Positions 3,225 through 22,289 of a DNA stretch of 29,150 bases are shown in pieces (position 1 is the stretch's first letter; each line of letters opens with the position of its first letter). A program made the translations under genes and the position numbers. The notes below the pieces were generated by a model. That model ran no database searches. It was not told the DNA's origin and was given only the letters and a program-made list of their open reading frames with translations. The DNA lies in NCBI GenBank assembly GCA_023257055.1, contig JALRDG010000043.1:1-29150 (forward strand). Reading direction: 5' to 3'. The stretch comes from Candidatus Saccharimonadia bacterium. GTDB taxonomy: Bacteria > Patescibacteriota > Saccharimonadia > Saccharimonadales > Saccharimonadaceae.

Positions 3225-3848
3225 ATGCAGTTACATCGTGCACAAGAGAAGCCGGATTGGGAAGTAGTGCTGCCCGAACATCGCAATGGTTGGCAGCGAG
3301 TGGCGGCCCGCACTAGAGGTGTCATAACACCGGCAAACGGCATTACGATAGTAGGGTGTGTAATTGTCTTGATAGGGCTATGGTGTCTGTACGTAGAGGT
3401 GTACTGGTGGTCGGCATTTCTTTTTGTTATTGGAAGATTATTTGATGTGGCTGATGGCTATGTAGCTGAATTGACCAAAACGAAAAGTCCATTTGGGGAG
3501 TTGCTTGACGCCGGCGTTGATAAATTCATTACTATCGGTGTAGTGATTGCATTGGGAATACTGCAGCTTGCATCATGGTGGTTAATTGGAATTATTGCAG
3601 TCCCGCAAATTGTTATTGCTGCAATTTCTTATCGAGCGAGACGACGAAAAGTCCACCTGCACCCTTCACGACTAGGGAAGTATAGTATGGCTCTCGTGTG
3701 GTGCGGATTTTCCTTGCTCATTATGGCAGTTGCGACTGATGGTCAAATGGCTCACGCTATTGGTATCGGTGCGTACGGTGTGATTGTAGTGGCTGTGGCT
3801 ATGAGTGGGTATGCCGCCTACGTGTATGCCTGTAGTAAAGCTGAGTAA
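3225..3848 (+). CDS. CDP-alcohol phosphatidyltransferase family protein (PgsA/Pss/Pis-like)
   Basis: Signature DVADGYVAE...SPFGELLDAGVDK (DxxDGxxAR...GxxxDxxxD) and multiple TM helices. Confidence 0.9.
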   Translation: MQLHRAQEKPDWEVVLPEHRNGWQRVAARTRGVITPANGITIVGCVIVLIGLWCLYVEVYWWSAFLFVIGRLFDVADGYVAELTKTKSPFGELLDAGVDKFITIGVVIALGILQLASWWLIGIIAVPQIVIAAISYRARRRKVHLHPSRLGKYSMALVWCGFSLLIMAVATDGQMAHAIGIGAYGVIVVAVAMSGYAAYVYACSKAE

Positions 3849-4406
3849 CTAGATCGGCTCTTTCTTTAATCCGATCCGCCAGCCGATATAGCAAACGATG
3901 ATATGCATACCAAACCATAAAAAGAGGATGATCAAATACTGGATGGCAGAAAGCAAGGCAAACGGCAAGGTTATAATAATTGTGCCAATAATATAATCAA
4001 CTTGATCGAATGGCACCCAAGCCTTGCCTGATGGTATGCCTCGCCGGCGCTTAAAAAAACTTTCAATCGCATCGCCGCCAAGTGCGCCAATAGCAAATAA
4101 TGGGCCAAGCAGTAATACCGGCAGGTGTGAATAATCAATACTTCCGGCAGCATATTGAGCCCATGAGGTATGTTCAGTAGCGATCTGTTGTAGCCATAAT
4201 GTTACAGTGGCGATGAAGATGCCGCTCATGAGGCCACGCCACGTTTTATTGTCACCAAGTAGGCGTTGGCCACGCCAACTGCGACCGTAGTCAATAGGTG
4301 TATTAAAGCGTGACAAAAATGGCAGATGAGCACTAAGAACGGGGGCTATGTTTGCTAAACCTGCAGGCAGTAGAAACCATAGAGCAAACACAATCATTTG
4401 TAGCAT
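3849..4406 (-). CDS. carS: CarS-like (CDP-archaeol synthase / DUF46 family) cytidylyltransferase
   Basis: ANIAPVL, PIDYGRSWRGQRLLGDNKTWRG and GDAIESFFKRRRGIPSGKAWVPFDQVD match the PxD-G...G-xKTW-G and GD-xxSF-KRR-G...DQxD motifs of the CarS family. Confidence 0.85.
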   Translation of the reverse strand: MLQMIVFALWFLLPAGLANIAPVLSAHLPFLSRFNTPIDYGRSWRGQRLLGDNKTWRGLMSGIFIATVTLWLQQIATEHTSWAQYAAGSIDYSHLPVLLLGPLFAIGALGGDAIESFFKRRRGIPSGKAWVPFDQVDYIIGTIIITLPFALLSAIQYLIILFLWFGMHIIVCYIGWRIGLKKEPI

Positions 4407-4436
4407 CCTTTTAGTATACGGTAGACTTATAAGAGG
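4407..4436. promoter_or_regulatory. Compact bidirectional promoter (two back-to-back -10 boxes)
   Basis: 30-bp gap with TATACT (minus, 4418-4413) 6 nt before the carS-like ATG and TAGACT (plus, 4422-4427) 9 nt before the methyltransferase ATG. Confidence 0.6.
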
Positions 4437-5024
4437 ATGCTAGACACGAAAGTATTATTATCAGATCAAGTTGATGCGCGCGAAATTGCCCTTGTTCTGC
4501 GTGAGCTCGACCGGACACGTGGCGTCGCTGGTGACATTGTAGAATTTGGTTGCTATGTGGGGACGACTAGCGTATTCCTCGGGACTCAACGAGAAAAAGG
4601 CAAGCAGCTGTTTCTTTACGATTCTTTCGAAGGGCTTCCTGAAAAAGGATTGCAAGATATATCTCCTGTCGGCCAGCAATTTGTCGCCGGAGAATTAGCA
4701 GCAACAAAGAAACAACTTCTTTCGAATCTCAAACGTGCGGGCGTGCACGATGCAAGGGTAAAAAAAGCCTGGTTTTCCGATTTAACGGACGTAGACGTCC
4801 CCGAGAGTATCAGCTTTGCATTTCTTGATGGGGATTATTATGACTCCATTCTTATACCACTCCAGCTCATTTGGGAGCGGTTGTCTCCTGGTGCAATTGT
4901 CATCGTGGATGATTACGCCAACGAAGCACTGCCCGGCGCCGCGCGCGCGGTAGACACATGGCTACACCGACACGATGCTTCGCTTCATATCGAGCATTCA
5001 CTGGCCATTATGCGGCTCCCTTGA
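4437..5024 (+). CDS. TylF/MycF/NovP-family O-methyltransferase
   Basis: GDIVEFGCYVG, LYDSFEGLP, AFLDGDYYDS and GAIVIVDDY are characteristic TylF-family motifs. Confidence 0.87.
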   Translation: MLDTKVLLSDQVDAREIALVLRELDRTRGVAGDIVEFGCYVGTTSVFLGTQREKGKQLFLYDSFEGLPEKGLQDISPVGQQFVAGELAATKKQLLSNLKRAGVHDARVKKAWFSDLTDVDVPESISFAFLDGDYYDSILIPLQLIWERLSPGAIVIVDDYANEALPGAARAVDTWLHRHDASLHIEHSLAIMRLP

Positions 5025-5538
5025 ACCATTTTGCGTAGGCTTTTCGGGCTTTTACAATTTTTGGAGCTATTACTATCGAGCAGTAGCCACTGGCGGGCCA
5101 CTTACTGAAATAATCTTGGTGCTCGTCTTCTGCTGGATAGAAAGCTGTCAGACTAGTGATTTCAGTAACAATTGGATCGTCCCAGTGTTGCTGTGCCCGC
5201 CTTTTGGCGGCGGTGAATGCAGCGGATTGTTGATCATCAGTTGCAAGCATAATTGAGCGGTATTGTGGCCCGGTATCTGCACCTTGCTGGTTAGGAGTTG
5301 TCGGGTTATGCAGAATAAAAAACAGATCGAGAATGACATCAGCAGGGATTATTGCTTCGTCGAACGTAATAGACACAACTTCAGCGTGGCCGGTTTGACC
5401 GCTTGCTACGGTATAGTAGTTTGGATAATGTTCGTCGCCGCCAGCATAGCCAGACACGACATCCGTCACTCCACGTAGCTGGCGATACACCGCATCAAGA
5501 CACCAAAAGCAGCCGCCCCCTAAAATGTATGTTGTCAT
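5008..5538 (-). CDS. msrA: Peptide-methionine (S)-S-oxide reductase
   Basis: GGGCFWC, VSGYAGG, GHAEVV, HNPT, QGADTGPQYRS and AEDEHQDY, plus a resolving Cys in GYC. Confidence 0.96.
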   Translation of the reverse strand: MTTYILGGGCFWCLDAVYRQLRGVTDVVSGYAGGDEHYPNYYTVASGQTGHAEVVSITFDEAIIPADVILDLFFILHNPTTPNQQGADTGPQYRSIMLATDDQQSAAFTAAKRRAQQHWDDPIVTEITSLTAFYPAEDEHQDYFSKWPASGYCSIVIAPKIVKARKAYAKWFKGAA

Positions 5539-5575
5539 AGTATCCTTAAGTATACCGGTTCATATTTTTAGTGTT

Positions 5576-5591
5576 CGTAAGAATTATTACA
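5576..5591. promoter_or_regulatory. Candidate Crp/Fnr-family binding site shared by divergent msrA and yihY
   Basis: CGTAA-gaatta-TTACA (contains GTA-N8-TAC). It lies 37 nt from msrA's -10 (TATACT, minus, 5554-5549) and 38 nt from yihY's extended -10 (TGC-GATACT, 5614-5619). Confidence 0.62.
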
Positions 5592-5628
5592 GATAAATGA
5601 AGATACCGGCTGCGATACTAAGCGATAT

Positions 5629-6615: not shown

Positions 6616-6717
6616 AAAGCAAGCTTTTCGCGTTGTAAAAACTAAATGCTACGATTGTTGACCCCGCGAGATTGCAGTGTTTAAATACGAAGGTATTAAT
6701 TATAACAAGGGGAAGAC

Positions 6718-7974: not shown

Positions 7975-7991
7975 ATAGTTGACGTAACTAC

Positions 7992-8028
7992 ACAATACAG
8001 GCCGTGTATATGCGGCCTGTATTGTTTT
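7992..8028 (+). terminator. Intrinsic terminator
   Basis: acaatacaggccg ... cggcctgtattgt (13-bp stem) running into a T-run, just after the stop at 7974. Confidence 0.8.
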
Positions 8029-8066
8029 GCCAAAAGAGTTCATCTATAAGGAAGAGTTGCCTGGCT

Positions 8067-9134: not shown

Positions 9135-9208
9135 ATTGTCGTCTTATTTTATCATAGCCACTTACCTCGACGGTGTGAAAAACGCCTACACCTGGTACTA
9201 TTAGAAGT

Positions 9209-10126
9209 ATGATTTCATATCTCCGCTCTACGCATTATCGACCGGCCATCAAACAGCGGCAAAGTCTGCAGCCGGGTTGCTGGGTTCGTTGCGAGAAGCC
9301 GTCTGAAGCTGAACTGGAGAAGCTGATTAATCTCGGGCTGGATGCTGATATCCTCCATGACACACTCGATCCACACGAGGTGCCACGCGTCGAGCTTGAT
9401 GGCGACTGGACGTACTTTATTACACGCTTACCAGACACTGACGACAACTTTAACGACTATACGACACCTATCTTGTTCGCAATCGGTCGTGAATATATTG
9501 TTACGGTTGGACGAGATTCGCTAGGGCGCCTGTGGCAGCCATTTATCGACAACGTCCAAGCACCGACAACGCAAAAAACGAAGGTCTTCATGCTGATGAT
9601 CGATGCAATCATACGGCAGTATTCCACGCGAGTCGCTTCTATCAATCGCCAGATGCGCGCAGCTACAACCGATATTGTCAATTTACGTCCGAAAGAAATC
9701 GCTAATATCGTTGAATACGAACGAAAACTCAATGATTATCTTGACGCTCTCATTCCAACGAACACTTCGGTGGAAAAAATTCTCAGTGGCAAGTTATTGC
9801 AGTTGTACGAAGACGATCGCGAAACTGCCGAAGATCTCTCGATTGATCTCGAGCAGCTAATTTCTCGTTGTAAAAGCTTGCTCCGTACGATTACGAACTT
9901 GCGTGATTCGTATCGTGCGGTAATGGATACACGTTTGAACGAGACAATCCGTACACTGACGCTCATTACTTTAGCACTGACAATTCCAACGATGTTGGCG
10001 GGATTATTTGGTATGAACGTAGCGCTACCGGTAAACCCTGAATCGCCTGTTGTTTTTTGGTTTGTCGTAGCGCTCAGTGTGGCTGCGGCCGGAAGTTTAA
10101 GTATGTATTTTAATCGAAAACGATAA
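9209..10126 (+). CDS. corA: CorA-family Mg2+/divalent cation transporter (copy 1)
   Basis: DTLDPHEVPRVE, LNETIRTLT.IT.A..IPT.LAGLFGMNV (GMN motif) and two C-terminal TM helices. Confidence 0.9.
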   Translation: MISYLRSTHYRPAIKQRQSLQPGCWVRCEKPSEAELEKLINLGLDADILHDTLDPHEVPRVELDGDWTYFITRLPDTDDNFNDYTTPILFAIGREYIVTVGRDSLGRLWQPFIDNVQAPTTQKTKVFMLMIDAIIRQYSTRVASINRQMRAATTDIVNLRPKEIANIVEYERKLNDYLDALIPTNTSVEKILSGKLLQLYEDDRETAEDLSIDLEQLISRCKSLLRTITNLRDSYRAVMDTRLNETIRTLTLITLALTIPTMLAGLFGMNVALPVNPESPVVFWFVVALSVAAAGSLSMYFNRKR

Positions 10127-10144
10127 GGGGACGTAGAAATATCA

Positions 10145-10825
10145 ATGTCGAACGATCATAAAAAATATCCTCGATACCTCATTACAGCACTCTTGCTAGC
10201 ACTTGGGGGATTTACGCTACTCGCTATTGGGTTCCTTGGTGTTATGCGATTTGTCGTATCTGGTGCAAGTCAATCGTACGACGAGCGTGTATTACTGGCA
10301 ATTAATGCATGGTCAACGCCGCTGCTCGATACGACTATGCGTACTATTACAGATTTTGGATCAGTTGGCGTGGCGGCAGTCGTAGTCATTGCCGCGCTTT
10401 TGTATGTACGCAACCATCACACCTACCGGGCACTGTTTATCGTGAGTGCTGTCGGCGGTGCTGCAATTTTGAGCGTTGTGTTGAAACTTTTATTCTCTCG
10501 CCCTCGCCCCGATTTATGGCAGCATCTTGTGGTGGAAGAAACATTTTCCTTTCCAAGCGGGCATGCCATTGCAAGCAGTGCACTCGCGTTTAGTGTCATG
10601 ATCTTACTGTGGCGTACACGATATCGTTGGCTGGGGGTGATAACTGGGGTTGTGTATATGTTGACAATTGGTTTCAGTCGAATGTATCTCGGCGTTCATT
10701 ATCCAACTGATATTATTGCCGGCTGGCTTGTCAGTGCGGCATGGGTGCTGCTTGTGGCAACAATGCTGTGGCATCGTCGACAGGTACGTCATGCCATGAA
10801 AGCGTTAGACGATACAACGAAGTGA
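10145..10825 (+). CDS. PAP2-family lipid/undecaprenyl-phosphate phosphatase
   Basis: C1 KLLFSRPRP, C2 SFPSGH and C3 SRMYLGVHYPTD, with multiple TM helices. Confidence 0.92.
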   Translation: MSNDHKKYPRYLITALLLALGGFTLLAIGFLGVMRFVVSGASQSYDERVLLAINAWSTPLLDTTMRTITDFGSVGVAAVVVIAALLYVRNHHTYRALFIVSAVGGAAILSVVLKLLFSRPRPDLWQHLVVEETFSFPSGHAIASSALAFSVMILLWRTRYRWLGVITGVVYMLTIGFSRMYLGVHYPTDIIAGWLVSAAWVLLVATMLWHRRQVRHAMKALDDTTK

Positions 10826-11674
10826 TTGCTGCACGCTTGCTATAGTAATTTCGGTGTGCGCCGGTAAGCGTATAATCTCGCCATCTATTTGCATACGCGT
10901 GGAATGCGTTGTTATAAAAGAGAAAGATTTGGCTTGCGGGGCTGTTTCAATACCAACGGTCGAAGCCTTAAGGAGGTACTGTAGTAGCCGAGGCCCGCTA
11001 GTGGAATGGAGGGCGGATATCTCAAACAGGCCGTCATCTATCTCGGCCGTTTTCGAGAGCTTAAGGACCTTAGACATACGACCGTTCGTGCTAAAAACAA
11101 GGCTATCATAGCGACGACGCCCGCCGTCTATGATGATACGAACAGAGCGAATGCGAAACAAGTTACGAATAACCAGCCATAACTCATTGATGCGATTAAG
11201 TTTCGTCTGATTAAGTTCATGTCCTATTTGTGGGGTTATGCCGATACCGGCGTAGGAATGACCATAGTAGGTATGAGGGCCAAAAGAGATTTTCAACGCG
11301 TCAATTAATCGAACATCACCTAGTCGAATCCGTTCGACCGTATTGCCCTCATGAACAAAGTGATAGTGATCGTTTGCATTACCGGACGGCAGGAGGCCGC
11401 AGACCGCTCGTGACTCTAGTGTGGAGTTGCTGAGAACGGCATTTACAATTTCATGGTATGTGCCATCACCACTTGACGCAATAAGCAGCGTCTCGGCTTC
11501 AGTGGCATGCTCACGGGCAAAGTCGCCCGCATGTCCGGCGTAATCTGTTTTTAAGAGCTCCACCTGCAGGTGGTCAATTGACGTAAGCTTATCGAACAGT
11601 TCTTTGGCAGTAGTATAGCTGCTACCAGTGCTGACGGGATTATAAAGAATGTATACCTGGGTGAGAATGGCCAT
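10805..11674 (-). CDS. Soluble diacylglycerol/lipid kinase family protein (DAGK_cat, DgkB/YegS-like)
   Basis: ILYNPVS, SSGDGTYHEIVN, GLLPSGNAND, IDDGLFEI, MQIDGE. Start moved from 11722 to the ATG at 11674 (MAILTQVYILYNP), which has TGC-TATAGT 6 nt upstream. Confidence 0.88.
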   Translation of the reverse strand: MAILTQVYILYNPVSTGSSYTTAKELFDKLTSIDHLQVELLKTDYAGHAGDFAREHATEAETLLIASSGDGTYHEIVNAVLSNSTLESRAVCGLLPSGNANDHYHFVHEGNTVERIRLGDVRLIDALKISFGPHTYYGHSYAGIGITPQIGHELNQTKLNRINELWLVIRNLFRIRSVRIIIDGGRRRYDSLVFSTNGRMSKVLKLSKTAEIDDGLFEISALHSTSGPRLLQYLLKASTVGIETAPQAKSFSFITTHSTRMQIDGEIIRLPAHTEITIASVQQSLRCIV

Positions 11675-11707
11675 ACAGGTACTATAGCAGGAGTAAAGTA
11701 GAAGATT

Positions 11708-11723
11708 TGTTATATATCTCACT
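11708..11723. promoter_or_regulatory. Candidate Crp/Fnr-family binding site shared by the divergent lipid kinase and yeaQ/ymgE-like genes
   Basis: TGTTA-tatatc-TCACT lies 37 nt from TATGAT (11745-11750, plus) and 37 nt from TATAGT (11686-11681, minus). It is 17/20 identical to the site at 22290. Confidence 0.68.
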
Positions 11724-11784
11724 GTTCGTCGGCTACAAGGCCGATATGATGGAGATACACACGAAATAAGTAAAGGAGATATAT

Positions 11785-12054
11785 ATGTTAGATATCATTC
11801 TGTGGATCCTGTTCGGTGCATTAGCCGGATGGATAGCATCAAAAATTATGAAGACCGATGCGGAACAAGGTGCGATCGCGAATATCATTGTTGGTATTCT
11901 TGGTGCCTTCATTGGTGGTTTCCTGATGCAGGCATTGACCGGCCAGCCAACCGACACCTTCAGTATTGGCGGCTTGCTCGTTGCCATTCTTGGCGCAGTT
12001 GTTCTGCTTGCCATCTACAAGGCCATCACTGGTCGTCGCGGCGTTACTCGCTAA
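11785..12054 (+). CDS. GlsB/YeaQ/YmgE family stress-response membrane protein (transglycosylase-associated)
   Basis: [16 protein letters not shown]...[15 protein letters not shown]...[16 protein letters not shown]; RBS AAAGGAG at 11772-11778. Confidence 0.93.
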
Positions 12055-12084
12055 TTCAACTACACACTCTCACTCTCTCACTTT

Positions 12085-12117
12085 ACCGCTCGCGCCCTCT
12101 CGCGAGCGGTTCTTTTT
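12085..12117 (+). terminator. Intrinsic terminator
   Basis: accgctcgcg-ccctct-cgcgagcggt followed by tcttttt. Confidence 0.85.
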
Positions 12118-12177
12118 ATGTACTATGGTTACTAAAAGATAGAAAAAATACCCCAATCAACCTATAATAGAGCTACG

Positions 12178-13962
12178 ATGATACAGCGATTACGATCGGT
12201 AGCTTTAACCCATTTACGGGCCTTGCGAGTAAAACGCTTTTTTTCCTCGACGTACTTAATTGCTTTGACGATCGGATTCGGGATCGTCCTTTGTTTATTA
12301 ACCGTCCTTTCAGCACGTGCGCTACATATTGCCAATCAAGACATGGTAGAGGTAGCAATTGAGCGACGAAAGCGTGAAGATGCTTTGGAGATAAACCGAG
12401 CGATGTCAGCTCATTCTCAGGCGCTTCTCAGCTCGGTCGGGTTAATGAACAGTGTCAGGATGACGCCGGAGGTATGGGGTCGATTCATTGCCTCCTATCG
12501 TAGCGAGGATGCATTTCCGGCAATGTTTGCAATTGGCGCGGCGGAATATATTCGATCAGAAAATATACCGGAGCTAGAAGCGCGCCTTTCAGACCAGTAT
12601 CAGCGTCCGGTTGAGGTATTTCCTAGGCCGACTGGAGAATTTAGTGAACCGGTGCTGTATGTCGAGCGAGGTGATAGCTTGGCACAGCAGACCATCGGAT
12701 TAGACATGATGCAATTGCCAGAGCGCAATGAGGCGGCTGAACTAGCCACGGACACGAACTCAATCGTACTGACCGACCCTGCTCATATTATTTCCGATAC
12801 GACGACACTCGAGGAAGACCCCCGGTCTGCCATCTTCATGTTTGCACCGTATTATGTGATCGGTAGCGATCTTTCGACCGTTGAAAAACGACAAAGGGCA
12901 ATACGTGGCCATGTATATATCGCGTTTCATACACAAGAGCTATTTTCAAAGATATTTTCAGAAAATAATTTTAATAACATTCGGTTGGTTATATATCAAA
13001 AAGACGACCCGGAAAAAGATTTATTATATGCATCTCCCAATATTTCCGCTCATCGACGCCAACAGAACGTAAAGACTGATCTTACGTTACTGAATAAAAC
13101 GTACACGTTGGAATACCAATTTAACGCTGCTTCGATATTGTCGCCGGTTCAGCGGTATGCACCACTACTGACGCTCCTGTTTGGATTGACGATTAGCATC
13201 GTGTTACCTGCTTTGATGCACAATATTGTGCGCGCTCGCCAGAATGCCTTGCATTTTGCAAATGAGCAAAAGATTAAAAAGGCGCAGGACGAACTACTTT
13301 CACTTGCTTCGCATCAGCTCCGAACGCCCGCTACGGCCACTAAGCAGTACATTGGCATGGTATTGCAAGGTTTTATGGGTGACGTGCCGAAAGAGCAACA
13401 GGCGTTCTTACAGAAGGCCTACGACAGCAATGAACGTCAGTTGCGTATCATCAATGATATTCTTCATGTTGCTAAGCTTGATGCTGGCCGCATCGTACCA
13501 TCCATGAAACCGTTTGACATCACGGCTACTGTCAAAGGCGTGCTCGAAGATACGGCTTCCGATGTTCGAAAAGCAGGTATTACTATTCGGCGTCAGCTTG
13601 GTCGCTCGTATATGTTGACAGGGGATGAATACATGATTCGGATGATTGTAGAGAACCTGGTAAGTAATGCAATTAAATACACGCCTTCTGGCGGCAAGGT
13701 GACTGTCGCGGCTCGGCGAGAGGCGCATGGCTATCATCTTAGCGTGACGGATACTGGTATAGGTATCGCAAAGCAGGACTTTGATCGTTTATTCAAGCAG
13801 TTCTCGCGGATAGAGAGCGATCATAGTGCGACAGTGCCAGGTAGTGGCGTTGGGCTGTACTTGGCGCAAAATCTTGCACATCTGCACGGCGGCAAGATTA
13901 AAGTAGTGTCAAAAATTGGCAAAGGATCGACCTTTACACTGTATTTGCCAAAAAATATGTAA
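12178..13962 (+). CDS. CHASE-domain membrane sensor histidine kinase
   Basis: Two TM helices flank a CHASE-like region (PVLYVE, IGLDM...RNEA..LA.DT...LT.P). Transmitter motifs ASHQLRTP, NLVSNAIKYT, VTDTGIGI, GSGVGLY. Confidence 0.9.
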   Translation: MIQRLRSVALTHLRALRVKRFFSSTYLIALTIGFGIVLCLLTVLSARALHIANQDMVEVAIERRKREDALEINRAMSAHSQALLSSVGLMNSVRMTPEVWGRFIASYRSEDAFPAMFAIGAAEYIRSENIPELEARLSDQYQRPVEVFPRPTGEFSEPVLYVERGDSLAQQTIGLDMMQLPERNEAAELATDTNSIVLTDPAHIISDTTTLEEDPRSAIFMFAPYYVIGSDLSTVEKRQRAIRGHVYIAFHTQELFSKIFSENNFNNIRLVIYQKDDPEKDLLYASPNISAHRRQQNVKTDLTLLNKTYTLEYQFNAASILSPVQRYAPLLTLLFGLTISIVLPALMHNIVRARQNALHFANEQKIKKAQDELLSLASHQLRTPATATKQYIGMVLQGFMGDVPKEQQAFLQKAYDSNERQLRIINDILHVAKLDAGRIVPSMKPFDITATVKGVLEDTASDVRKAGITIRRQLGRSYMLTGDEYMIRMIVENLVSNAIKYTPSGGKVTVAARREAHGYHLSVTDTGIGIAKQDFDRLFKQFSRIESDHSATVPGSGVGLYLAQNLAHLHGGKIKVVSKIGKGSTFTLYLPKNM

Positions 13963-13973
13963 GATAATTCATA
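13958..13973. promoter_or_regulatory. Candidate Crp/Fnr-family binding site upstream of the single-domain receiver gene
   Basis: TGTAA-gataat-TCATA overlaps the kinase stop codon. It is 37 nt before TAATAT (13995-14000), or 35 nt before the overlapping TATAAT at 13993. Confidence 0.5.
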
Positions 13974-14007
13974 GCTTATTATCAAAATATCGTATAATAT
14001 AAAATAT

Positions 14008-14379
14008 ATGTCAGGTAAAGTACTCATTGTAGAAGACGAAATAGCATTGTCTGATGTCTATAAAACCTTGCTCGATCAGGCCGGGTATGATGTTCGCGTC
14101 GCCGAAAACGGCGAGGTGGCGCTGGGAGTCGCGGAAGAATTTCAGCCAGAGATGATACTACTAGATCTTCGAATGCCGGTGCTTGATGGAATCGGCTTTT
14201 TACACAAATATGATCTTAAGAACGCACATCCGGACGTAAAGGTTGTCGTGTTCAGTAATTATGATATGCAAAAAGAGATTGATGAAGCATATTCGCTTGG
14301 TGCCGAGCGCTATCTATTAAAGGCGTGGGCGTCACCAAAAGAGCTTATCGAGCTAGTAAAGACGACACTTGGTAAATAA
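14008..14379 (+). CDS. Single-domain response regulator (receiver only)
   Basis: IVEDE, ILLDLRMPVLDG, FSNY, YLLKA; 123 aa with no output domain. Confidence 0.93.
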   Translation: MSGKVLIVEDEIALSDVYKTLLDQAGYDVRVAENGEVALGVAEEFQPEMILLDLRMPVLDGIGFLHKYDLKNAHPDVKVVVFSNYDMQKEIDEAYSLGAERYLLKAWASPKELIELVKTTLGK

Positions 14380-14388
14380 TAGTTATTG

Positions 14389-14417
14389 AAAACCCGCCAC
14401 ATAAAGGCGGGTTTTTT
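14389..14417. terminator. Bidirectional intrinsic terminator
   Basis: aaaacccgcc-acataaa-ggcgggtttttt between convergent genes. Confidence 0.85.
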
Positions 14418-14431
14418 GTTGGCAGGTGATA

Positions 14432-15109
14432 TTACAGGAGACTGTTAGTTGGATGAATAGCCGCAAAGCTGTCATCGCCAATGGAGCTTTCGATTGACTT
14501 GCGGTCAATAACGAAGCGTGAATTCTGATATTCAATGCTGCCTTGCTCCTTGAGCTTCTTCAGTTCAATAGTGGAGGTTTCACGCGTTAAGCCGGTCAAA
14601 CTTGCGAAGGTAGAGTGGGTGATCTTGAAGTTAATAAAATAACGACCATCGCGCTGCTGTCGACCAAAGCGGAGGAGGAGGAAGTATACCATCAGCTTAA
14701 CTTTATCGGCAGCACGAGTCTGATTTAAGGCATTAACTTGCAGTTGTGATGAGGTATGACTGCGGACAAAGTAGTCGAATACATGTTGTCGCGCGTCTTC
14801 ATCCGAGGTGATGATTGCAAGTAATTCATCCTTTGGAATTGTGTATACTTCGCAGTCTTCAAGTGCTTCATAATAAAATAGCGTACTTGAAGACTGTCCG
14901 TATATCCAGGCATCAGGAAAGATATCACCTTCGGTGTGAAAGTTAATAATCAGTTCATTACCATGATTATCAATGCGGTACACTTTTATAGTGCCGCGCT
15001 TAAGGACATGGGCCTGACGAGGAACTTCTCCCTGATACAGGATAATAGATTTGCGTTTATAAACACGCTTGGTTGCCACATCTTTTAGTAGAGGTAGAAG
15101 TGTACGCAT
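14432..15109 (-). CDS. Crp/Fnr-family transcriptional regulator
   Basis: cNMP-binding-fold motifs (YKRKSIILYQGE, LKRGTIKVY, YEALEDCEV) and C-terminal HTH ITHSTFASLTGLTRETSTIELKKLKEQGSI. Confidence 0.92.
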   Translation of the reverse strand: MRTLLPLLKDVATKRVYKRKSIILYQGEVPRQAHVLKRGTIKVYRIDNHGNELIINFHTEGDIFPDAWIYGQSSSTLFYYEALEDCEVYTIPKDELLAIITSDEDARQHVFDYFVRSHTSSQLQVNALNQTRAADKVKLMVYFLLLRFGRQQRDGRYFINFKITHSTFASLTGLTRETSTIELKKLKEQGSIEYQNSRFVIDRKSIESSIGDDSFAAIHPTNSLL

Positions 15110-15205
15110 ACCTCTGTATCATACCATTTTTTGGCTATTTGTGCACTTTTTTCGTAAAGTTTGCTAGATATGCATAAGTAGAAAAGTACGCTATACTGCT
15201 TATGA

Positions 15206-16129
15206 ATGGCCGAGTTCTATCAAAAAATTACCGCGCAAGAACCGCTTCACCGTATAAAAACCGCACAATTGGGCGGTGTATGGGCGCATGCCGGAACGAA
15301 AGCGGCAATTGATGAACTAGCTCGGCACTACGAGCTTGATCCACATATTGTTCGCGATGTATGTGATGAGCGCGAACTGGCGCGCATGGAAAATAACGGT
15401 CACGCCACCTATGTATTTTTCCGAAAACTTACCAGAGAGTACGATGGCCATGCGATTTCCGCACCGATACTGGCTGTGCTATTGCCAGATGCACTCATTA
15501 CGATGTCACCACATACGGCATTTAATCCTGGAGCATTAGGTGACGAACTGGTGCCGACAACCGATAAACCAGCTTCGGTTCTGACGGTAGTGCTAGGTAC
15601 GCTTGTCACGCAGTATGAGCAGCATATCCACGATATTAACGAAAAGATCAAAAAGCTCCGTAACCGGTTGCGTACACACGAAGTAAGTAATGATGATTTC
15701 ATCATGTTTGTTTCGATTGACGACAACTTAAATCATTATCATCAAAACCTTGACGGATTACTAGCGGTAATGCGTCGTTTGCGTGAGAATCAGCAGGTCG
15801 GATTTACCGCGCATGATATTGAAGTCATCGATGATATATCACTACATATCGAGCAGTTAGTGGTAGCGATTAAAAGTGCTAGCCAGACAGTGAGTAGTAT
15901 CCAGAACGCCTACAGTACGATTGCTAATAACCGCCTAAACCATCGCATGAAAGCTTTGACTGTTTTTACAGTCCTCCTGACACTTCCTAATGTTTTTTAC
16001 GGAATGTTCGGCATGAATGTCAGCTTGCCGTACCAGGAAGAACCGTGGGCATACACGGCGATTGTCGGGTTGACAGGAGTGTTAATCGTTGTTATTTACG
16101 CTATTGCAAAACGCTTACGTTTGTTTTAA
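15206..16129 (+). CDS. corA: CorA-family Mg2+/divalent cation transporter (copy 2)
   Basis: DVCDERELARME, NNRLNHRMKALTVFT..LTLPNVFYGMFGMNV..P. Confidence 0.9.
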   Translation: MAEFYQKITAQEPLHRIKTAQLGGVWAHAGTKAAIDELARHYELDPHIVRDVCDERELARMENNGHATYVFFRKLTREYDGHAISAPILAVLLPDALITMSPHTAFNPGALGDELVPTTDKPASVLTVVLGTLVTQYEQHIHDINEKIKKLRNRLRTHEVSNDDFIMFVSIDDNLNHYHQNLDGLLAVMRRLRENQQVGFTAHDIEVIDDISLHIEQLVVAIKSASQTVSSIQNAYSTIANNRLNHRMKALTVFTVLLTLPNVFYGMFGMNVSLPYQEEPWAYTAIVGLTGVLIVVIYAIAKRLRLF

Positions 16130-16163
16130 TATGTAGGTATAGGCTGTGAAATGCAGCAAATTC

Positions 16164-16192
16164 TTGACGGCTATAGGCAAGCTTGCTATTAT
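16164..16192 (+). promoter_or_regulatory. Near-consensus sigma70 promoter with no long ORF downstream
   Basis: TTGACG-17 nt-TATTAT. Confidence 0.65.
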
Positions 16193-16290
16193 AAATATTG
16201 CGTCTTGCAAGAAAAACGCAAATTTAAAAACTATTTTAAAGGTCGACATACGCAAGACATAACGCTTCATAAAGGAGTACAACTACGCAC

Positions 16291-16383
16291 ATGCCAATAG
16301 CCATCGAATTTGTGTCTACTAGGCGCAAAAAGATTGCAGTGGATGTGGTGCCCGCCGAATGGCAACTGTATATCGCTCATTAG
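16291..16383 (+). CDS. Possible 30-aa small protein (MPIAIEFVSTRRKKIAVDVVPAEWQLYIAH), or part of an sRNA
   Basis: Sits between the promoter at 16164 and the terminator at 16401. AAAGGAG at 16271-16277 is 13 nt upstream, which is long. No recognised homology. Confidence 0.3.
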   Translation: MPIAIEFVSTRRKKIAVDVVPAEWQLYIAH

Positions 16384-16400
16384 AACATATGAGTTCACAA

Positions 16401-16439
16401 ATAAAATCACCCCAAGGCACCGGGGTGATTTTATGTTTT
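16401..16439. terminator. Bidirectional intrinsic terminator
   Basis: ataaaatcacccc-aaggcacc-ggggtgattttat (13-bp stem) with T-rich tails on both strands. Confidence 0.85.
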
Positions 16440-16450
16440 ATTTGTACGAA

Positions 16451-17128
16451 TTACTTTTGTTTCGCGATTTCAGATTCAATAGCTTTACTTAATGCTTCTA
16501 CGCTGCTCCATTCTTCTTGTGGAAGCTGACGACCATTAAGAATAAAGGTAGGGGTGCTCGTGACGTTATGCTTCTTTCCAAGCGCCAGATCAAAATTGAT
16601 TTTCTCTGTTACGCTCTGACTAATGATGTCTTCTTTGTATTGAGCGATATTGAGACCGATTTGTTTTGCATATTGTTCGAATATGCCGCCACGGTCATCA
16701 ATTGAAGCTGTTTCCCATTCTTTCTGGGCTGTATAAAGGGTATCGTGCATTTCCCAGTATTTGTCTTGTTTTGCGGCGGCTTCCGCACTGGCAGCAGCGA
16801 CGCGTGCATTTGGATGGATGCTAGTAAGTGGGAAATTCCGAAAAACAAACGCAATGTCGTCTTTGTAGGTTTCTTTCACTTCCTGAACGGTCGGGTGAGC
16901 TGATGCGCAGCCAGGACACTGGAAGTCGCCGTATTCAATGAGTGTTACTTTGGCATCTTTATTACCGTACACGTGGTCACCTATGTTTCCCGATTGCGCA
17001 GTTGGTGCCTGAATGGCATTTTCCTTCACTGTCTCAACGTCAATTGAGTTCTGACCAGACAAGTATACTAGTCCTCCTAAAAGCAGTACGCTCAGTGCTG
17101 CAAAAATAATCCATGCTTTATTCGTCAC
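16451..17128 (-). CDS. Membrane-anchored DsbA-family thioredoxin-fold oxidoreductase
   Basis: N-terminal anchor, EYGDFQCPGC, FVFRNFPL..IHPNA and cis-Pro loop VTSTPTF; GTG start with GGAGG RBS. Confidence 0.9.
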   Translation of the reverse strand: MTNKAWIIFAALSVLLLGGLVYLSGQNSIDVETVKENAIQAPTAQSGNIGDHVYGNKDAKVTLIEYGDFQCPGCASAHPTVQEVKETYKDDIAFVFRNFPLTSIHPNARVAAASAEAAAKQDKYWEMHDTLYTAQKEWETASIDDRGGIFEQYAKQIGLNIAQYKEDIISQSVTEKINFDLALGKKHNVTSTPTFILNGRQLPQEEWSSVEALSKAIESEIAKQK

Positions 17129-17213
17129 AATATATTCCTCCCTCGGATATCTTTACTTAGTATAGCGAAAGCGCTATGGGTACGCAACCAAGAGTACGCT
17201 ACAATAAAAGCAT

Positions 17214-18239
17214 ATGGAAATCCTGTTGAGTATTTTATTTTGTATCGTTGGCGTACTGCTCCTTATTGTGATGGGTGTTCGCCCCCAGGAGCAGACACAT
17301 AGTACGTTTGAGCTCCGGCGAAGAAAACAAAAAGGCGACAAGGAGGCGGAATACCTCTTGCGCAGAAATGAACTGCTCCATGATGTGTTCTCATTGCAGC
17401 GAGTCGTGACGGCGCTGCTGCTTGTCATCTTGTCGGCAATTAGTGTCGAACTGTTTTATTGGCTTCTTGGTTTGGTAATAACATTGCTGATTGCTCTCGA
17501 GGCGGGGGCGGTGGCACGGTTATCGCTCCTGCAGCATCGTTCTCAAAAACTCTATCAGGCGGTTGAGCCGAAGCTACTTGCGATCATTGAACGCTATCCG
17601 TTAATATTTAAGATGATTCGCAGTGTCTCTCCAGTTCCAGCCGACACCTACGACATCGAATCACGAGAGGAACTGCTCCATATGATAGAACAATCTGGTG
17701 GTGTACTTCGTGCTAACGAGAAAAAAATGATTACTAACGCGCTGAATTTTGATGAGCGGACGGTTAGCGAAATAATGGTCTCGCGCAGTAACGTTACAAT
17801 GATTTCGGCCGATGAGGTACTTGGTCCACTGGTCGTGAATGATCTTTACTCGACAGGCTATACACGTTTTCCAGTGTATGGGGATTCAATCGACGATATT
17901 GTCGGTGTAATTTACTTGGAGCAGCTAATGAAAATTGACGGCGCCAAGACGGCAACCACGAAAACTGCGCACCAAATGATGGAGCGACGTGTCTACTATA
18001 TTCGTGAAGACCAGTCACTTCAGCACGCGCTGTCAGCGTTCCTTCGTATGCATCATCACCTGTTTGTCGTGCTAAATGAACACCGTGAAACGGTGGGAAT
18101 TGTGACACTTGAAGACTGTCTTGGCGCATTGTTGGGAAGAAAAATACACGACGAATTTGATCAGCATGATAACAGATCGGTCGTCGCAGGGCGGGTGCTG
18201 GCGAAAAACAATCACTCAAAAAACGGTCAAGAGGTGTAG
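17214..18239 (+). CDS. CBS-pair membrane protein (CNNM/CorB-CorC, hemolysin-like Mg/Co efflux family)
   Basis: N-terminal TM helices, then SREELLHMI, NALNFDERTVSEIMVSR, TGYTRFPVY, HLFVVLNEH.ETVGIVTLED and GRKIHDEFD. Confidence 0.85.
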   Translation: MEILLSILFCIVGVLLLIVMGVRPQEQTHSTFELRRRKQKGDKEAEYLLRRNELLHDVFSLQRVVTALLLVILSAISVELFYWLLGLVITLLIALEAGAVARLSLLQHRSQKLYQAVEPKLLAIIERYPLIFKMIRSVSPVPADTYDIESREELLHMIEQSGGVLRANEKKMITNALNFDERTVSEIMVSRSNVTMISADEVLGPLVVNDLYSTGYTRFPVYGDSIDDIVGVIYLEQLMKIDGAKTATTKTAHQMMERRVYYIREDQSLQHALSAFLRMHHHLFVVLNEHRETVGIVTLEDCLGALLGRKIHDEFDQHDNRSVVAGRVLAKNNHSKNGQEV

Positions 18240-18295
18240 CTTCTAAGCGTAAGCAGTGGAAAAAACTTGCAAAAGCGCGTAAAATATAACTAATT

Positions 18296-20062
18296 ATGAC
18301 ACGAACACTTATTCGCGATGCACTGCACGCAATCGACCAGACAATTACCGTAAAAGGCTGGGTTCATACTCGCCGTGACCACGGAGGCTTGATATTCGTT
18401 GACATACGTGACCATACGGGCGTATTGCAGCTTGTCATTCAGCCGGAAAACGATGTCGCGTTCGCCACTGCTGAACAGCTTCGTGACGAATATGTCATTG
18501 CAGTGAATGGCAAGATCAAAGAACGGACACCGGACCTTCGTAATGATCGATTGGCAACCGGTACTATTGAATTGGTCGTTGATGAACTGACGATTTTAAA
18601 CCGCTCCGAACCTCTGCCAATTCAAGTGCATGGTGAAGCGCAGTCGAGCGAAGAGCTTCGTCTGAAGTACCGCTATCTTGATCTTCGCCGCGAAAAAATG
18701 CAGGCAACCCTCCGACAGCGTTCGGACTACTACCGTGTCATACGTGATTATATGCAAAAAAATGAGTTTACCGAAGTAACGACGCCTGTCCTGGCAAACT
18801 CCAGCCCAGAGGGCGCCCGAGATTTCCTCGTCCCATCTCGCGTTCATCCAGGTAAATTTTACGCATTGCCGCAAGCGCCTCAACAGTTTAAGCAACTACT
18901 AATGGTCGGTGGTGTGCCTCGATACTATCAAATTGCTACGTGCTTCCGTGATGAAGACCCGCGAGCGGATCGTCTATACGGTGATTTCTATCAGCTCGAT
19001 CTTGAAATTGCGTTTGCAGAAACAGGTGAAGAAATTCGTCAAACGATGGAGCCGTTAATAAAGCAGCTTGTAACTGATTTCGCCGGCAAGAAACTTCTGC
19101 ACGAAGATATTCCACGTATTACGTACCGCGAAGCGATGGATCGTTTTGGCTCGGATAAGCCGGATCTTCGATACGGCATGGAGCTTATCGACCTGACTGA
19201 CATATTTGTGTCATCTGAGTTTAGTGTGTTTAAGAAAGCTGCTGAATCTGGCGTCGTTAAAGCTATTCGCGTTGAAGGCGGCTCTGGGTTATCCCGTTCG
19301 CAAATCGATTCGTTTACTGATATTGCTAAAAAAGAAGGCGCCGGTGGACTAGCGTATATTAGTTTTGTCGATGGTGAAGCGAAATCACCAATTAGTAAAT
19401 TCTTATCTGACAGTGAAATTGCAGAAATGCAAAAACGCACAGGTGCAAAAAACGGCGACACGCTCTTCTTTGGTGCTGATACGCGCGACACCGTAAACAA
19501 GGTACTTGGTAAATTACGGATTGAATTTGCAGATCATTTTAACCTGAAAGATCCTAATCTGGTTGCTCTTGCCTGGGTGATAGATTTCCCATTCTATGAA
19601 TGGAATGACGGTGAGCGAAAAGTTGACTTTGGACATAATCCATTCTCGATGCCAAAGGGTGGTCTGCAATCGCTTGAAGCGGCGGACGATCCGCTCACAA
19701 TCGTTGCCGATCAATACGACATGGTCATGAACGGGTACGAAATTTGCTCAGGGGCTGTCCGAAACCACAATCCAGAAGTTATGTATAAGGCGTTTGGTAT
19801 TCTAGGTTACGATGAGGCGTATGTGGACGCCAAGTTTGGCGCTATGATCAATGCATTTAAGTATGGGGCGCCACCTCACGCCGGCTGTGCGTTTGGATTA
19901 GATCGAATCTTCATGGTACTTATCGGCGAAGAGAATATTCGTGAAGTTGTCGCATTTCCAAAGAATGGCTCTGGTGTCGATGTTATGATGAACTCGCCAA
20001 GCGTAGTCGACAAAGCACAGCTCGACGATCTCAGCTTACACATTGAAGAGAGAGCGCGCTAG
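18296..20062 (+). CDS. aspS: Aspartate-tRNA ligase (bacterial type, with GAD insertion)
   Basis: RRDHGGLIFVDIRD, LRLKYRYLDLRR, motif 1 SSPEGARDFLVPSR, LPQAPQQFKQLLM, motif 2 CFRDEDPRADR, motif 3 GAPPHAGCAFGLDR. Confidence 0.97.
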   Translation: MTRTLIRDALHAIDQTITVKGWVHTRRDHGGLIFVDIRDHTGVLQLVIQPENDVAFATAEQLRDEYVIAVNGKIKERTPDLRNDRLATGTIELVVDELTILNRSEPLPIQVHGEAQSSEELRLKYRYLDLRREKMQATLRQRSDYYRVIRDYMQKNEFTEVTTPVLANSSPEGARDFLVPSRVHPGKFYALPQAPQQFKQLLMVGGVPRYYQIATCFRDEDPRADRLYGDFYQLDLEIAFAETGEEIRQTMEPLIKQLVTDFAGKKLLHEDIPRITYREAMDRFGSDKPDLRYGMELIDLTDIFVSSEFSVFKKAAESGVVKAIRVEGGSGLSRSQIDSFTDIAKKEGAGGLAYISFVDGEAKSPISKFLSDSEIAEMQKRTGAKNGDTLFFGADTRDTVNKVLGKLRIEFADHFNLKDPNLVALAWVIDFPFYEWNDGERKVDFGHNPFSMPKGGLQSLEAADDPLTIVADQYDMVMNGYEICSGAVRNHNPEVMYKAFGILGYDEAYVDAKFGAMINAFKYGAPPHAGCAFGLDRIFMVLIGEENIREVVAFPKNGSGVDVMMNSPSVVDKAQLDDLSLHIEERAR

Positions 20063-20066
20063 CGAT

Positions 20067-21530
20067 ATGATCGCCTGGTTCGTCGAAACACTACGATTCA
20101 TAGGCGGGTTTTCAACAATCTGGCTAATAATTGAGTGGGTACTGCGAGTGATCGCCGTCTTTGTCATGCCGAAAAATCGACGCCCAACAGCCGGCCTTAC
20201 GTGGCTCACGTTAACATTCCTTATACCGCCGGCGGGCTGGGTGGCGTATTTGATTCTCGGGAATTCAAAATTACCTCTTTACCGACGACGCATCCAGAAA
20301 CACCTTGATGATATCTTGCGTCAGACAAAACTCAGCAATCGGGTGAATACGCCGCCTATTTCACGAAAATTCGCTGATGTTGAGCGGCTCGCTTGGTCAC
20401 TGACGCACTTACCGGTCAGTACGGCGAAATCATACGAAATCATCAGCGATTATCATGCAATATTTCATGCGATTGCTCGCGATATTGACGCAGCAAAACA
20501 TACGATTCATCTCGAATATTACACACTGGTGTTCGACCGTGAAACCGAAATTATTTTTACTGCGATTGAACGAGCGGTGGAGCGCGGTGTCAAGGTCCGC
20601 GTATTGTATGACGCCTATGGATCATGGAAGCACCGAAAACAGTTTAAACATGGTCGTCGGCGTCTGCGTGCCTGTGGTGCAGATGTTCGAGCTTCGCTAC
20701 CGTTCCGCCTACCGCTTCAAGGGTATACTCGGCCAGACTTACGAAATCACCGTAAGCTCGTGACAATTGACGGTCAGATTGGCTATAGCGGATCGCAGAA
20801 TATTATAAGTCGTGGATATCACCGTCGGGATGGCATTATTTATAACGATCTGGTCATGCGCTGTACCGGGGCTATCGTCCGACAGCTTGATATTGTTTTT
20901 GCTGCCGACTGGTATGCTGAAACAGAAGAAATCTTAATTGAAGAACAGGAACTTACCGCCAAGCAGCAGCGTGCTGGTATACATCGCATGCAAGTATTGC
21001 CGAGTGGTCCCGGGTATGAATACGAAAACAATCTGAAGATATTCAATACGCTCATCTACTCGGCAGAAAAAAGCATTCTTATCGTCAACCCGTATTTCGT
21101 CCCCGATGAGTCCCTCATGACGGCGCTTGTTAGTGCGGCTCGTCGTGGCATACAAGTGACAATGGTGAACTCAAAGGTGATGGATCAGTGGATGGTGGGC
21201 CATGCTCAGCGGTCGTACTACGAGGAGCTATTCTTAGCAGGTGTGCGAATATATTGGCACGAGAAGCCAAGCCTGCTGCATTCAAAATTCATGATTATCG
21301 ATGATGAGGTAGCGACGATTGGTTCTAGTAATATGGATATTCGTTCGTTTGAGCTCGATCATGAACTTACTCTTATCTGCTATGACCAGGCCGTTACGAA
21401 GGAGCTTGCTACTGTTGCTGCAGGATATTTGGACGCCTCTCAAGAGGTGGATAAGATTCGTTGGCTTAAACGTCCGCGCTACCGCCAGGTATTTGATAAT
21501 ATTGCCCGGCTCACATCATCATTGCAGTAG
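20067..21530 (+). CDS. cls: Cardiolipin synthase (PLD superfamily)
   Basis: N-terminal TM pair (WL...FLIPPAG..AY.ILG) and two HKD motifs, RNHRKLVTID and LHSKFMIIDD. Start moved from the TTG at 20043 (inside aspS) to the ATG at 20067. Confidence 0.92.
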   Translation: MIAWFVETLRFIGGFSTIWLIIEWVLRVIAVFVMPKNRRPTAGLTWLTLTFLIPPAGWVAYLILGNSKLPLYRRRIQKHLDDILRQTKLSNRVNTPPISRKFADVERLAWSLTHLPVSTAKSYEIISDYHAIFHAIARDIDAAKHTIHLEYYTLVFDRETEIIFTAIERAVERGVKVRVLYDAYGSWKHRKQFKHGRRRLRACGADVRASLPFRLPLQGYTRPDLRNHRKLVTIDGQIGYSGSQNIISRGYHRRDGIIYNDLVMRCTGAIVRQLDIVFAADWYAETEEILIEEQELTAKQQRAGIHRMQVLPSGPGYEYENNLKIFNTLIYSAEKSILIVNPYFVPDESLMTALVSAARRGIQVTMVNSKVMDQWMVGHAQRSYYEELFLAGVRIYWHEKPSLLHSKFMIIDDEVATIGSSNMDIRSFELDHELTLICYDQAVTKELATVAAGYLDASQEVDKIRWLKRPRYRQVFDNIARLTSSLQ

Positions 21531-21584
21531 CATTTACATCAGGCGTATACTAAAGAAGTAAGTTAATGAGGAGCAGTTGATCCC

Positions 21585-22166: not shown

Positions 22167-22179
22167 CCTTTACATGCTA

Positions 22180-22208
22180 TTGACAATTATAAAAGCTTAT
22201 GCTAATAT
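22180..22208 (+). promoter_or_regulatory. Near-consensus sigma70 promoter (distal promoter of the ytxG/ytxH-like pair)
   Basis: TTGACA-17 nt-TAATAT with TG at the extended -10 position. Confidence 0.65.
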
Positions 22209-22289
22209 AAAAATGTTGAACGCGTAAAACAAACAATCAATAACAACCTAACATACCAAAAAGTTCCTGTAACTCGAGTATCAGCGAAC

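Follow-up and report, generated by a model that had tools for sequence, protein, structure and literature searches.

A CarS-family protein and separate lipid gene modules suggest reworking of salvaged diacyl lipid in a Saccharimonadia bacterium

The window analysed here is a whole contig of 29,150 nucleotides (JALRDG010000043.1; C45 in our numbering) from a Saccharimonadia (TM7; Patescibacteria, or Candidate Phyla Radiation, CPR) assembly (GCA_023257055.1, labelled G000), and it carries six genes of lipid-related families, one of which encodes a small membrane protein of the archaeal CarS family. On balance we favour a reading in which salvaged diacyl lipid is reworked by two independent gene modules, with the CarS-like protein making CDP-diacylglycerol (CDP-DAG) from phosphatidic acid (PA). 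The wider question is how the membranes of ultra-small CPR bacteria are made when synthesis of fatty acids and phosphatidate is lacking. Lipid salvage and re-headgrouping has already been proposed for Saccharibacteria by Starr et al. (2018, PMC6031116), in whose scheme a Saccharibacterium takes up PA, phosphatidylethanolamine or phosphatidylcholine and passes it through a phosphatidate cytidylyltransferase to phosphatidylglycerophosphate (PGP), cardiolipin or phosphatidylinositol. In the literature on CarS in CPR bacteria or Saccharibacteria we found nothing beyond that paper and a passing remark in Villanueva (2020), and the NCBI and JGI labels of the CarS-like genes read CDP-archaeol synthase. 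New here are the exclusion between CarS and CdsA, together with the many genomes of the class that have neither; the definition of a charge-reversed transferase subfamily restricted to CarS genomes; the independence of a block of PAP2, kinase and cardiolipin synthase genes; and the discounting of apparent PlsY and UbiA genes.

The six lipid genes of the original prediction are all confirmed, with Pfam matches above the gathering scores (the name LHR-type is given here, after an MxLHR..DW..WQR segment):

3225-3848, plus strand: LHR-type CDP-alcohol phosphatidyltransferase (CDP-OH_P_transf), 207 aa; PF01066, 74 bits
3849-4406, minus strand: putative CarS-like CTP:lipid cytidylyltransferase, 185 aa; PF01864, 104.7 bits
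8067-9134, minus strand: short-chain trans-polyprenyl diphosphate synthase (polyprenyl_synt); PF00348, 163 bits
10145-10825, plus strand: PAP2 lipid phosphate phosphatase, 226 aa, six predicted transmembrane helices; PF01569, 83 bits
10805-11722, minus strand: DAGK_cat / YegS-BmrU-type lipid kinase with a GDGT motif; PF00781, 60 bits; likely start at M17 (11674, as originally predicted), giving 289 aa
20043/20067-21530, plus strand: PLD-type cardiolipin synthase (ClsA-like); TIGR04265, 342 bits against a cut-off of 290

In the proposed mechanism the organism would have no synthesis of acyl chains or of the PA backbone, and diacyl lipids from the host would be its sole source of backbones. In module A (3225-4406) the CarS-family membrane enzyme would convert PA and CTP to CDP-DAG, the job of CdsA elsewhere, and the LHR-type transferase would move the phosphatidyl group onto a hydroxyl acceptor with release of CMP. 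In module B (10145-11722, together with cls at 20043-21530) PAP2 at the outer face would dephosphorylate PA, PGP or lyso-PA, and possibly undecaprenyl diphosphate; neutral diacylglycerol (DAG) would flip across the membrane, where a soluble cytoplasmic DAGK-type kinase would re-phosphorylate it to PA, and the PLD-type cardiolipin synthase (Cls) would interconvert phosphatidylglycerol (PG) and cardiolipin. The uptake of lipid, every substrate and the direction in which flux runs are inferences.

The observations themselves are of gene identities, folds, motifs, phyletic patterns and the conservation of gene pairs. The G000 assembly comprises 936,506 b in 149 contigs (87% complete, 2.3% contamination, mean GC 48.7%). 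A search of the window confirmed the earlier statement that it has no acyltransferase, fatty-acid synthesis, geranylgeranylglyceryl phosphate synthase (GGGPS) or digeranylgeranylglyceryl phosphate synthase (DGGGPS) gene. Across the genome no canonical CdsA was found, the sole PF01148 match being the CarS-like gene itself (27.5 bits), and profile searches of G000 gave no PF01553 acyltransferase (PlsC, PlsB), PlsX, FabF (searched for in this genome only), DegV/FakB, PcrB/GGGPS or Fe-ADH_2/glycerol-1-phosphate (G1P) dehydrogenase. The only CDP-alcohol transferase of G000 is that of the window. In a sample of 121 Saccharimonadia-class genomes (G-numbers below; gene loci have L-numbers), PlsC-type acyltransferases occur in 52, and since G000 has none, re-acylation of lyso-lipids is not available to it as far as the assembly shows. 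Apart from matches to PlsY and UbiA, both discounted below, the genome thus has no credible cdsA, acyltransferase, fab, GGGPS/DGGGPS or G1P dehydrogenase gene, in line with the original prediction.

The one PlsY match in G000 (C84:92-634, 176 bits) was rejected as a sign of partial de novo synthesis. It lies in the terminal ~1.3 kb of contig C84 (locus L002, C84:1-1400), where GC content is 71% compared with 45-50% in the remaining contig; its frame is rich in Arg, Pro and Ala, as in high-GC DNA, a truncated GDPD frame at this end continues directly into ThrRS, the similar sequences are from Pseudomonadota, and just one of the other 120 genomes of the class has a PlsY. This end of C84 probably stems from contamination or from a chimeric join in the assembly, and would mislead an inventory of the pathway. 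The one UbiA gene was likewise rejected as a DGGGPS. It is on C149 (L043, C149:1606-4569), where a CrtI-like oxidase, a 131-aa open reading frame (ORF), an ORF with a lycopene-cyclase domain and the UbiA prenyltransferase follow one another in an order resembling a C50-carotenoid cluster (crtI-crtYe/Yf-crtEb), and the contig is a tetranucleotide outlier, only one of 66 contigs of similar length being further from the genome mean. Horizontal transfer or an error of binning may account for the cluster.

The polyprenyl synthase of the window was originally listed with the lipid genes, and we now assign it an ordinary role, because UppS is present (C142, 248.6 bits) and needs a farnesyl diphosphate (FPP) primer. 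G000 makes peptidoglycan precursors and also has BacA (C73). The best NCBIfam matches of the synthase are FPP/geranylgeranyl diphosphate (GGPP)-type enzymes, all under cut-off, and it is most simply a housekeeping enzyme that supplies FPP for undecaprenyl diphosphate synthesis by UppS, outside the phospholipid route. It could also feed the C149 cluster.

The CarS-like protein matches PF01864 from end to end (gathering score 22; residues 1-182 on profile positions 1-172 of 175) and is recovered by phmmer with Aeropyrum pernix CarS (5GUF; E = 6.7e-12), with conservation of the GDxxESFxKRRxG and DQxD loops, which are invariant or near-invariant in 25 relatives. Its AlphaFold (AF2) model has a pLDDT of 89.9, and the top Foldseek match of the model is 5GUF (TM score 0.71/0.82, rmsd 1.9 Å over 166 columns); the TM score to Thermotoga maritima CdsA (4Q2G) is 0.38. 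PF01148 aligns locally (28.3 bits, profile positions 169-230 of 264), with no full-length match. The description 'archaeal-type CarS' is therefore right as a statement of family and fold, as originally made.

With the archaeal enzymes (A. pernix ApCarS, 5GUF, and Archaeoglobus fulgidus AfCarS; PF01864, EC 2.7.7.67) the window protein shares the Pfam family, the five-helix fold, the cytoplasmic loops GDxxxSxxKRR and DQxD and a length of ~180 aa. It differs from them in being bacterial, in having a ~20-aa insertion between helices (residues ~80-100), and in belonging to a genome with no GGGPS, DGGGPS or G1P dehydrogenase for the supply of digeranylgeranylglyceryl phosphate (DGGGP). Because genes for DGGGP supply were not found in G000, the substrate of the CarS-like protein must differ, and is presumably diacyl PA. 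With bacterial CdsA (T. maritima 4Q2E/4Q2G; PF01148) it shares the superfamily, a local match over the catalytic core (28 bits over 62 profile positions) and, we propose, the reaction PA + CTP to CDP-DAG + PPi; unlike it, CdsA has nine transmembrane helices and ~260-290 aa.

The family is large (1,740 clusters at 50% identity, E <= 0.001; 551 loci in species-representative genomes), with CarS-like proteins in 60 of 301 sampled Patescibacteria, and the close homologs of the window protein carry the names Candidatus Saccharibacteria or Saccharimonadales. In an unrooted tree built without non-DPANN archaea, from which no direction of transfer is drawn, the Saccharimonadia sequences form one clade (100/99 support), around which other CPR CarS and annotated Woesearchaeota and Nanoarchaeota CarS interleave. 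Identity between the window protein and CarS of these DPANN archaea is 33-40%. The DPANN proteins are themselves 50-55% identical to CarS of non-Saccharibacterial CPR, with which they are interleaved in the tree; these sequence relationships suggest exchange of CarS between CPR and DPANN, both ultra-small symbionts.

Strong CarS-like matches are present in 12 of the 121 class genomes (G000, G022, G034, G038, G047, G053, G088, G089, G095, G098, G113 and G116, the last divergent) and canonical CdsA, at 73-149 bits, in eight (G024, G039, G065, G084, G104, G114, G118 and G119). No genome has both, a mutual exclusion that fits a single shared function. The proposal that CarS takes the place of CdsA is supported by the lack of CdsA in G000, by this exclusion and by the adjacency of CarS to CDP-alcohol transferases described below. 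Replacement of CdsA by CarS in situ at a syntenic locus was looked for and not seen: between the window and the PgsA/CdsA loci of G119 and G065, no neighbouring genes are in common.

In the window the CarS-like and transferase genes are convergent with zero gap. We scored the context of CarS in the 80 nearest species loci with small purpose-built profiles, and the usual order is a CDP-alcohol transferase resembling archaetidylinositol phosphate (AIP) or phosphatidylinositol phosphate (PIP) synthase, a PHP-domain phosphoesterase and CarS, in a tightly overlapping operon (seen in L005-L015); PHP is directly upstream of CarS in ~48 of the 80. At 22 loci a transferase is convergent with CarS, no more than 16 bp from its 3' end, and at one further locus an LHR-type transferase is 1 kb from CarS. 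Both arrangements surround CarS at three loci, one of them being the locus with the transferase at 1 kb. The loci whose CarS-like protein is most similar to that of the window, at 55-64% identity, for the most part have just the convergent pair, and so has L037. Variants include a HAD-type 'PGP phosphatase-like' gene followed by the transferase and CarS (G034), a PgsA-HAD fusion adjoining CarS, next to a divergently oriented DAGK_cat gene (G088), and, in other CPR classes, PgsA-like then CarS as well as NusG-CarS-L11-transferase. The PIPS-like/PHP/CarS operon has in common with the window the CarS clade and the logic of a CDP-lipid synthase by a CDP-alcohol transferase; unlike it, the window has neither the PIPS-like gene nor the PHP phosphatase, and keeps the convergent LHR-type transferase alone. 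NCBIfam scores of the transferases in that operon point to phosphatidylinositol as its head group. Together, the adjacency to transferases and the exclusion of CdsA favour a lipid step by CDP activation, with scavenged lipid as the starting material.

The LHR-type transferase exceeds the PF01066 gathering score of 22 and keeps the four catalytic Asp, the Gly and the Ala, with DGYVAE in the place of DGxxAR. A word search with it gave 20 matches of at most 50% identity. N-terminal MxLHR..DW..WQR and HPSRxGK segments are common to it and to second transferase copies in CarS-bearing relatives, and the subfamily signature is DGxxA[E/D] followed by x[TS]xTKS. At the position of the signature Arg, 25 LHR-type members have Glu (13), Asp (11) or His (1), with all four metal-binding Asp kept across the subfamily; the PIPS-like operon transferases retain the Arg in 46 of 49. 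In Staphylococcus aureus PgsA (SaPgsA) this residue, R65, binds the CDP moiety, and an R65A enzyme is near wild type in detergent and poor in the lipidic phase (PMC8640168).

A profile of the subfamily scores at least 164 bits only in G000, G034, G047, G095 and G098, all of them CarS genomes, and four of these five were in its training set. Free of this circularity is the finding that the 109 genomes lacking CarS all stay below 100 bits (the score of G107 being 93), which points to dependence of the LHR-type transferase on the CarS product. Where LHR-type genes are sited away from CarS in relatives, no informative neighbours were found.

The structural model of the transferase (pLDDT 91) is nearest to SaPgsA (TM score 0.68/0.76), with scores of 0.53-0.59 to PIP synthases and 0.37 to phosphatidylserine synthase. 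With SaPgsA (7DRJ/7DRK) and the CMP-forming cardiolipin synthases (Streptomyces ClsA type, NF053678) it shares the six-helix CDP-alcohol phosphotransferase fold and the D1xxD2G...G...D3xxxD4 metal site. SaPgsA residues were mapped by eye, through an alignment and the bona fide PgsA of L024, which scores 163 bits and whose numbering is offset by 8 throughout. Counterparts of K83 and K135 are conserved, whereas R110, R118 and K137, which hold the phosphate of glycerol 3-phosphate (G3P) in SaPgsA (PMC8640168), align to P, S and S; three of the five G3P-phosphate-binding residues thus do not align. The Glu or Asp for the signature Arg, the MxLHR..DW..WQR extension and the TxTKS segment also set the LHR-type apart from SaPgsA. 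NCBIfam scores are 56 bits for AIP synthase, 52 for pgsA and 41 for CMP-forming ClsA, and against NF045883 and NF040950 the protein reaches 36 and 56 bits (cut-offs 170 and 180), with the N-terminal half alone aligning. Judged from sequence, G3P is possible as the acceptor and disfavoured by the pocket residues; an alcohol other than G3P, for example PG with cardiolipin as the product, is no less likely.

These features bear on the single linear chain originally proposed, which runs between DAG and PA and then by CDP-DAG, PGP and PG to cardiolipin, with the transferase as PgsA and PAP2 as PGP phosphatase. Every enzyme family that it needs is in the window, the fold of the transferase is nearest to SaPgsA, JGI labels some LHR-type homologs PGP synthase, and PAP2 has a 49-bit match to NCBIfam PgpB (cut-off 261), PgpB-type PAP2 enzymes being known PGP phosphatases. 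Also on this side, inositol-phosphate synthase was found in one of the 121 class genomes and in no CarS genome, by a weak search whose control missed Corynebacterium glutamicum. However, the transferase scores 51.6 bits against the pgsA model TIGR00560, for which the cut-off is 109.1, its signature Arg is replaced by Glu, the three G3P-phosphate ligands are unaligned, and other homologs are labelled CMP-forming cardiolipin synthase; the step from CDP-DAG to PG(P) originally given to this enzyme is therefore no more than possible. Taken with the separability of the genes in module B, considered next, we regard the linear chain as unlikely, while still a serious candidate.

In the PAP2 protein of module B the C1, C2 and C3 motifs are intact (K114xxxxxxRP, P137SGH and S178RxxxxxHxxxD). 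The positive-inside pattern predicts the motif loops outside, where the active-site motifs lie in all characterised PAP2 enzymes. Besides PgpB, its NCBIfam matches include PRK11837 (40 bits, cut-off 229), and no subtype cut-off is reached. The kinase exceeds the PF00781 threshold of 23.6, scores 50.5 bits against TIGR00147 (cut-off 118.65) and, with no predicted transmembrane segment, appears soluble. The two genes are convergent in the window with a 21-nt overlap, and the pair recurs in at least 11 genomes of the class: PAP2 and DAGK_cat genes are co-directional and 12-30 bp apart in G015, G017, G029, G040, G056, G061, G103, G114 and G118, convergent in G000 and G071, and within 1.3 kb of each other in four more genomes.

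In mammals, LPP/PAP2 enzymes dephosphorylate sphingosine 1-phosphate or lysophosphatidic acid outside the cell and a DAGK_cat-family kinase (sphingosine kinase) re-phosphorylates the product inside, which results in uptake. A predicted outward-facing PAP2 with a soluble DAGK_cat kinase is alike in arrangement, an analogy drawn here from genes, and it suggests that PAP2 outside, DAG flipping and kinase inside might together import or trap lipid. Recycling of endogenous lipid would be an equally good role for the pair, and PAP2 could equally act on undecaprenyl diphosphate; because BacA is present, it is not needed as the sole phosphatase for that substrate.

The cardiolipin synthase has HKD motifs (HxKxxxxD) at residues 236 and 413 and an N-terminal transmembrane segment. 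Its gene follows that for aspartyl-tRNA synthetase:

18296-20062: aspS (AspRS)

The two overlap by 20 nt at the 3' end of aspS and are probably co-transcribed; co-transcription of a cardiolipin synthase with an aminoacyl-tRNA synthetase is an unusual coupling. The order aspS-cls is kept in G071 (57% identity), a genome of the same family and a different genus, where the kinase ortholog (41% identical) is likewise convergent with PAP2. More broadly, window positions 9209-22993 are collinear with G071:C7:7500-19500 (L042), which has CorA, PAP2, kinase, Crp, CorA, DsbA, a CBS protein, AspRS, Cls and YtxH. We found no CarS, CdsA or CDP-alcohol transferase of any kind in G071, and across the class sample ClsA-type genes occur with and without CarS and are not coupled to it. 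The PAP2/DAGK/AspRS-Cls block is thus independent of the CarS module, and the window is not one conserved complete route, contrary to the original prediction. What stands of that prediction is the scavenging and re-headgrouping of host lipid, which is supported by the lack of acyl-lipid and ether-lipid genes and by CarS in the role of CdsA.

Several points weigh against the reading that we favour. The CarS-like protein misses the NCBIfam CarS equivalog NF003114 (129.7 bits, cut-off 148), and CarS function is therefore not transferable by homology. A. fulgidus CarS has a strong preference for DGGGP over PA and failed to complement an Escherichia coli cdsA mutant (reviewed in PMC9385802), and homology alone cannot establish PA as the substrate of the diverged Saccharimonadia clade. 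Neither CarS-like protein nor CdsA is present in ~100 of the 121 class genomes, so that the CDP route must be dispensable in the class; with most relatives lacking any CDP-DAG synthase, it is an optional and not a core trait. The Arg of the signature, a CDP ligand in SaPgsA, is missing from the LHR-type transferase, which passes no head-group-specific NCBIfam model, its matches being sub-threshold and mutually inconsistent. No PHP or HAD head-group (PGP) phosphatase homolog was found in G000 by tblastn, and no lipid-uptake machinery was identified. The best NCBIfam match of PAP2 is the undecaprenyl-diphosphatase SepP (68 bits, cut-off 250), and since G071 keeps PAP2, DAGK and Cls without the CarS module, the modules do not form one pathway. 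Finally, every genome-wide absence is limited by the assembly, with its 149 contigs and 87% completeness, 13% of the marker genes being missing.

The match to SepP is also consistent with a different reading, in which the CarS-like protein is a CTP-dependent prenol or polyprenol kinase, or another isoprenoid-lipid enzyme, and PAP2 and the kinase recycle undecaprenyl phosphate for the wall. Dolichol and phytol kinases that depend on CTP belong to the CTP_transf_1 superfamily, and G000 has peptidoglycan precursors, UppS and BacA, with a prenyl synthase in the window. However, the CarS-like genes occur time and again in close linkage with CDP-alcohol phosphatidyltransferases and head-group phosphatases, they and CdsA exclude one another, and the fold and CTP-binding loops match CarS. 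To our knowledge DAGK_cat kinases do not phosphorylate undecaprenol, which is a job of DgkA-type enzymes. We consider this reading improbable. An archaeal-type ether branch, from the prenyl synthase through an unrecognised GGGPS and DGGGPS to CarS and head groups, would suit the family membership of CarS, its likeness to and interleaving with DPANN sequences, the GGPP/FPP-type synthase and the lone UbiA gene, but with no PcrB/GGGPS or G1P dehydrogenase family match in G000, that UbiA in a CrtI/cyclase-domain cluster on an atypical contig and the prenyl synthase explained by UppS, it is very improbable indeed, and its lower ranking in the original prediction is upheld.

Returning to salvage by two modules, acceptance of diacyl PA by a CarS-family enzyme would mean that the archaeal/bacterial specificity of the CDP-lipid step is not absolute, and two small genes would suffice for a direct test of head-group remodelling of stolen lipid. 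The window offers two more handles, namely the transferase subfamily with its reversed charge and the pair of PAP2 and kinase. A more far-reaching proposal, which we put forward tentatively and think rather unlikely to hold in all its parts, is that CarS is the native CDP-DAG synthase of a fifth of CPR bacteria, that the LHR-type transferase makes a head group other than PGP, and that PAP2 and DAGK form an import device. If so, the 'lipid divide' would be crossed naturally at the level of an enzyme, one shared with lipid-scavenging DPANN archaea; the LHR-type, with Arg changed to Glu or Asp, would be a previously undescribed CDP-alcohol transferase subfamily fed by a CarS-like enzyme; and lipid would be imported by a conserved pair through dephosphorylation, flipping and re-phosphorylation.

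Some further observations concern the distribution and surroundings of these genes. A CDP-alcohol phosphatidyltransferase occurs without detectable CarS-like protein or CdsA in 47 of the 121 class genomes, where the CDP donor could come from a third type of CDP-DAG synthase or be a soluble CDP-alcohol. At G104:C5:5364-6648 (L035) PlsY is directly followed by CdsA, the canonical bacterial order and one seen in few class genomes, with no CDP-OH_P_transf match. In other CPR classes (L046, L050-L052) CarS is located between nusG and rplK (L11) with a CDP-alcohol transferase right after L11, which places a lipid gene inside one of the most conserved bacterial gene strings.

The remaining content of the window includes two-component systems, a Crp-type regulator, two CorA genes, MsrA, DsbA, AspRS and TrmB, among others. 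Two further features of the window are:

4437-5024, plus strand: TylF/macrocin-type O-methyltransferase, divergent neighbour of the CarS-like gene, 30 bp apart
12178-14379: CHASE histidine kinase and response regulator

The position of the O-methyltransferase is not conserved in L037, which has a major facilitator superfamily (MFS) transporter there. The CHASE histidine kinase and response regulator are not in the collinear stretch of G071, and look like an insertion in the lineage of the window.

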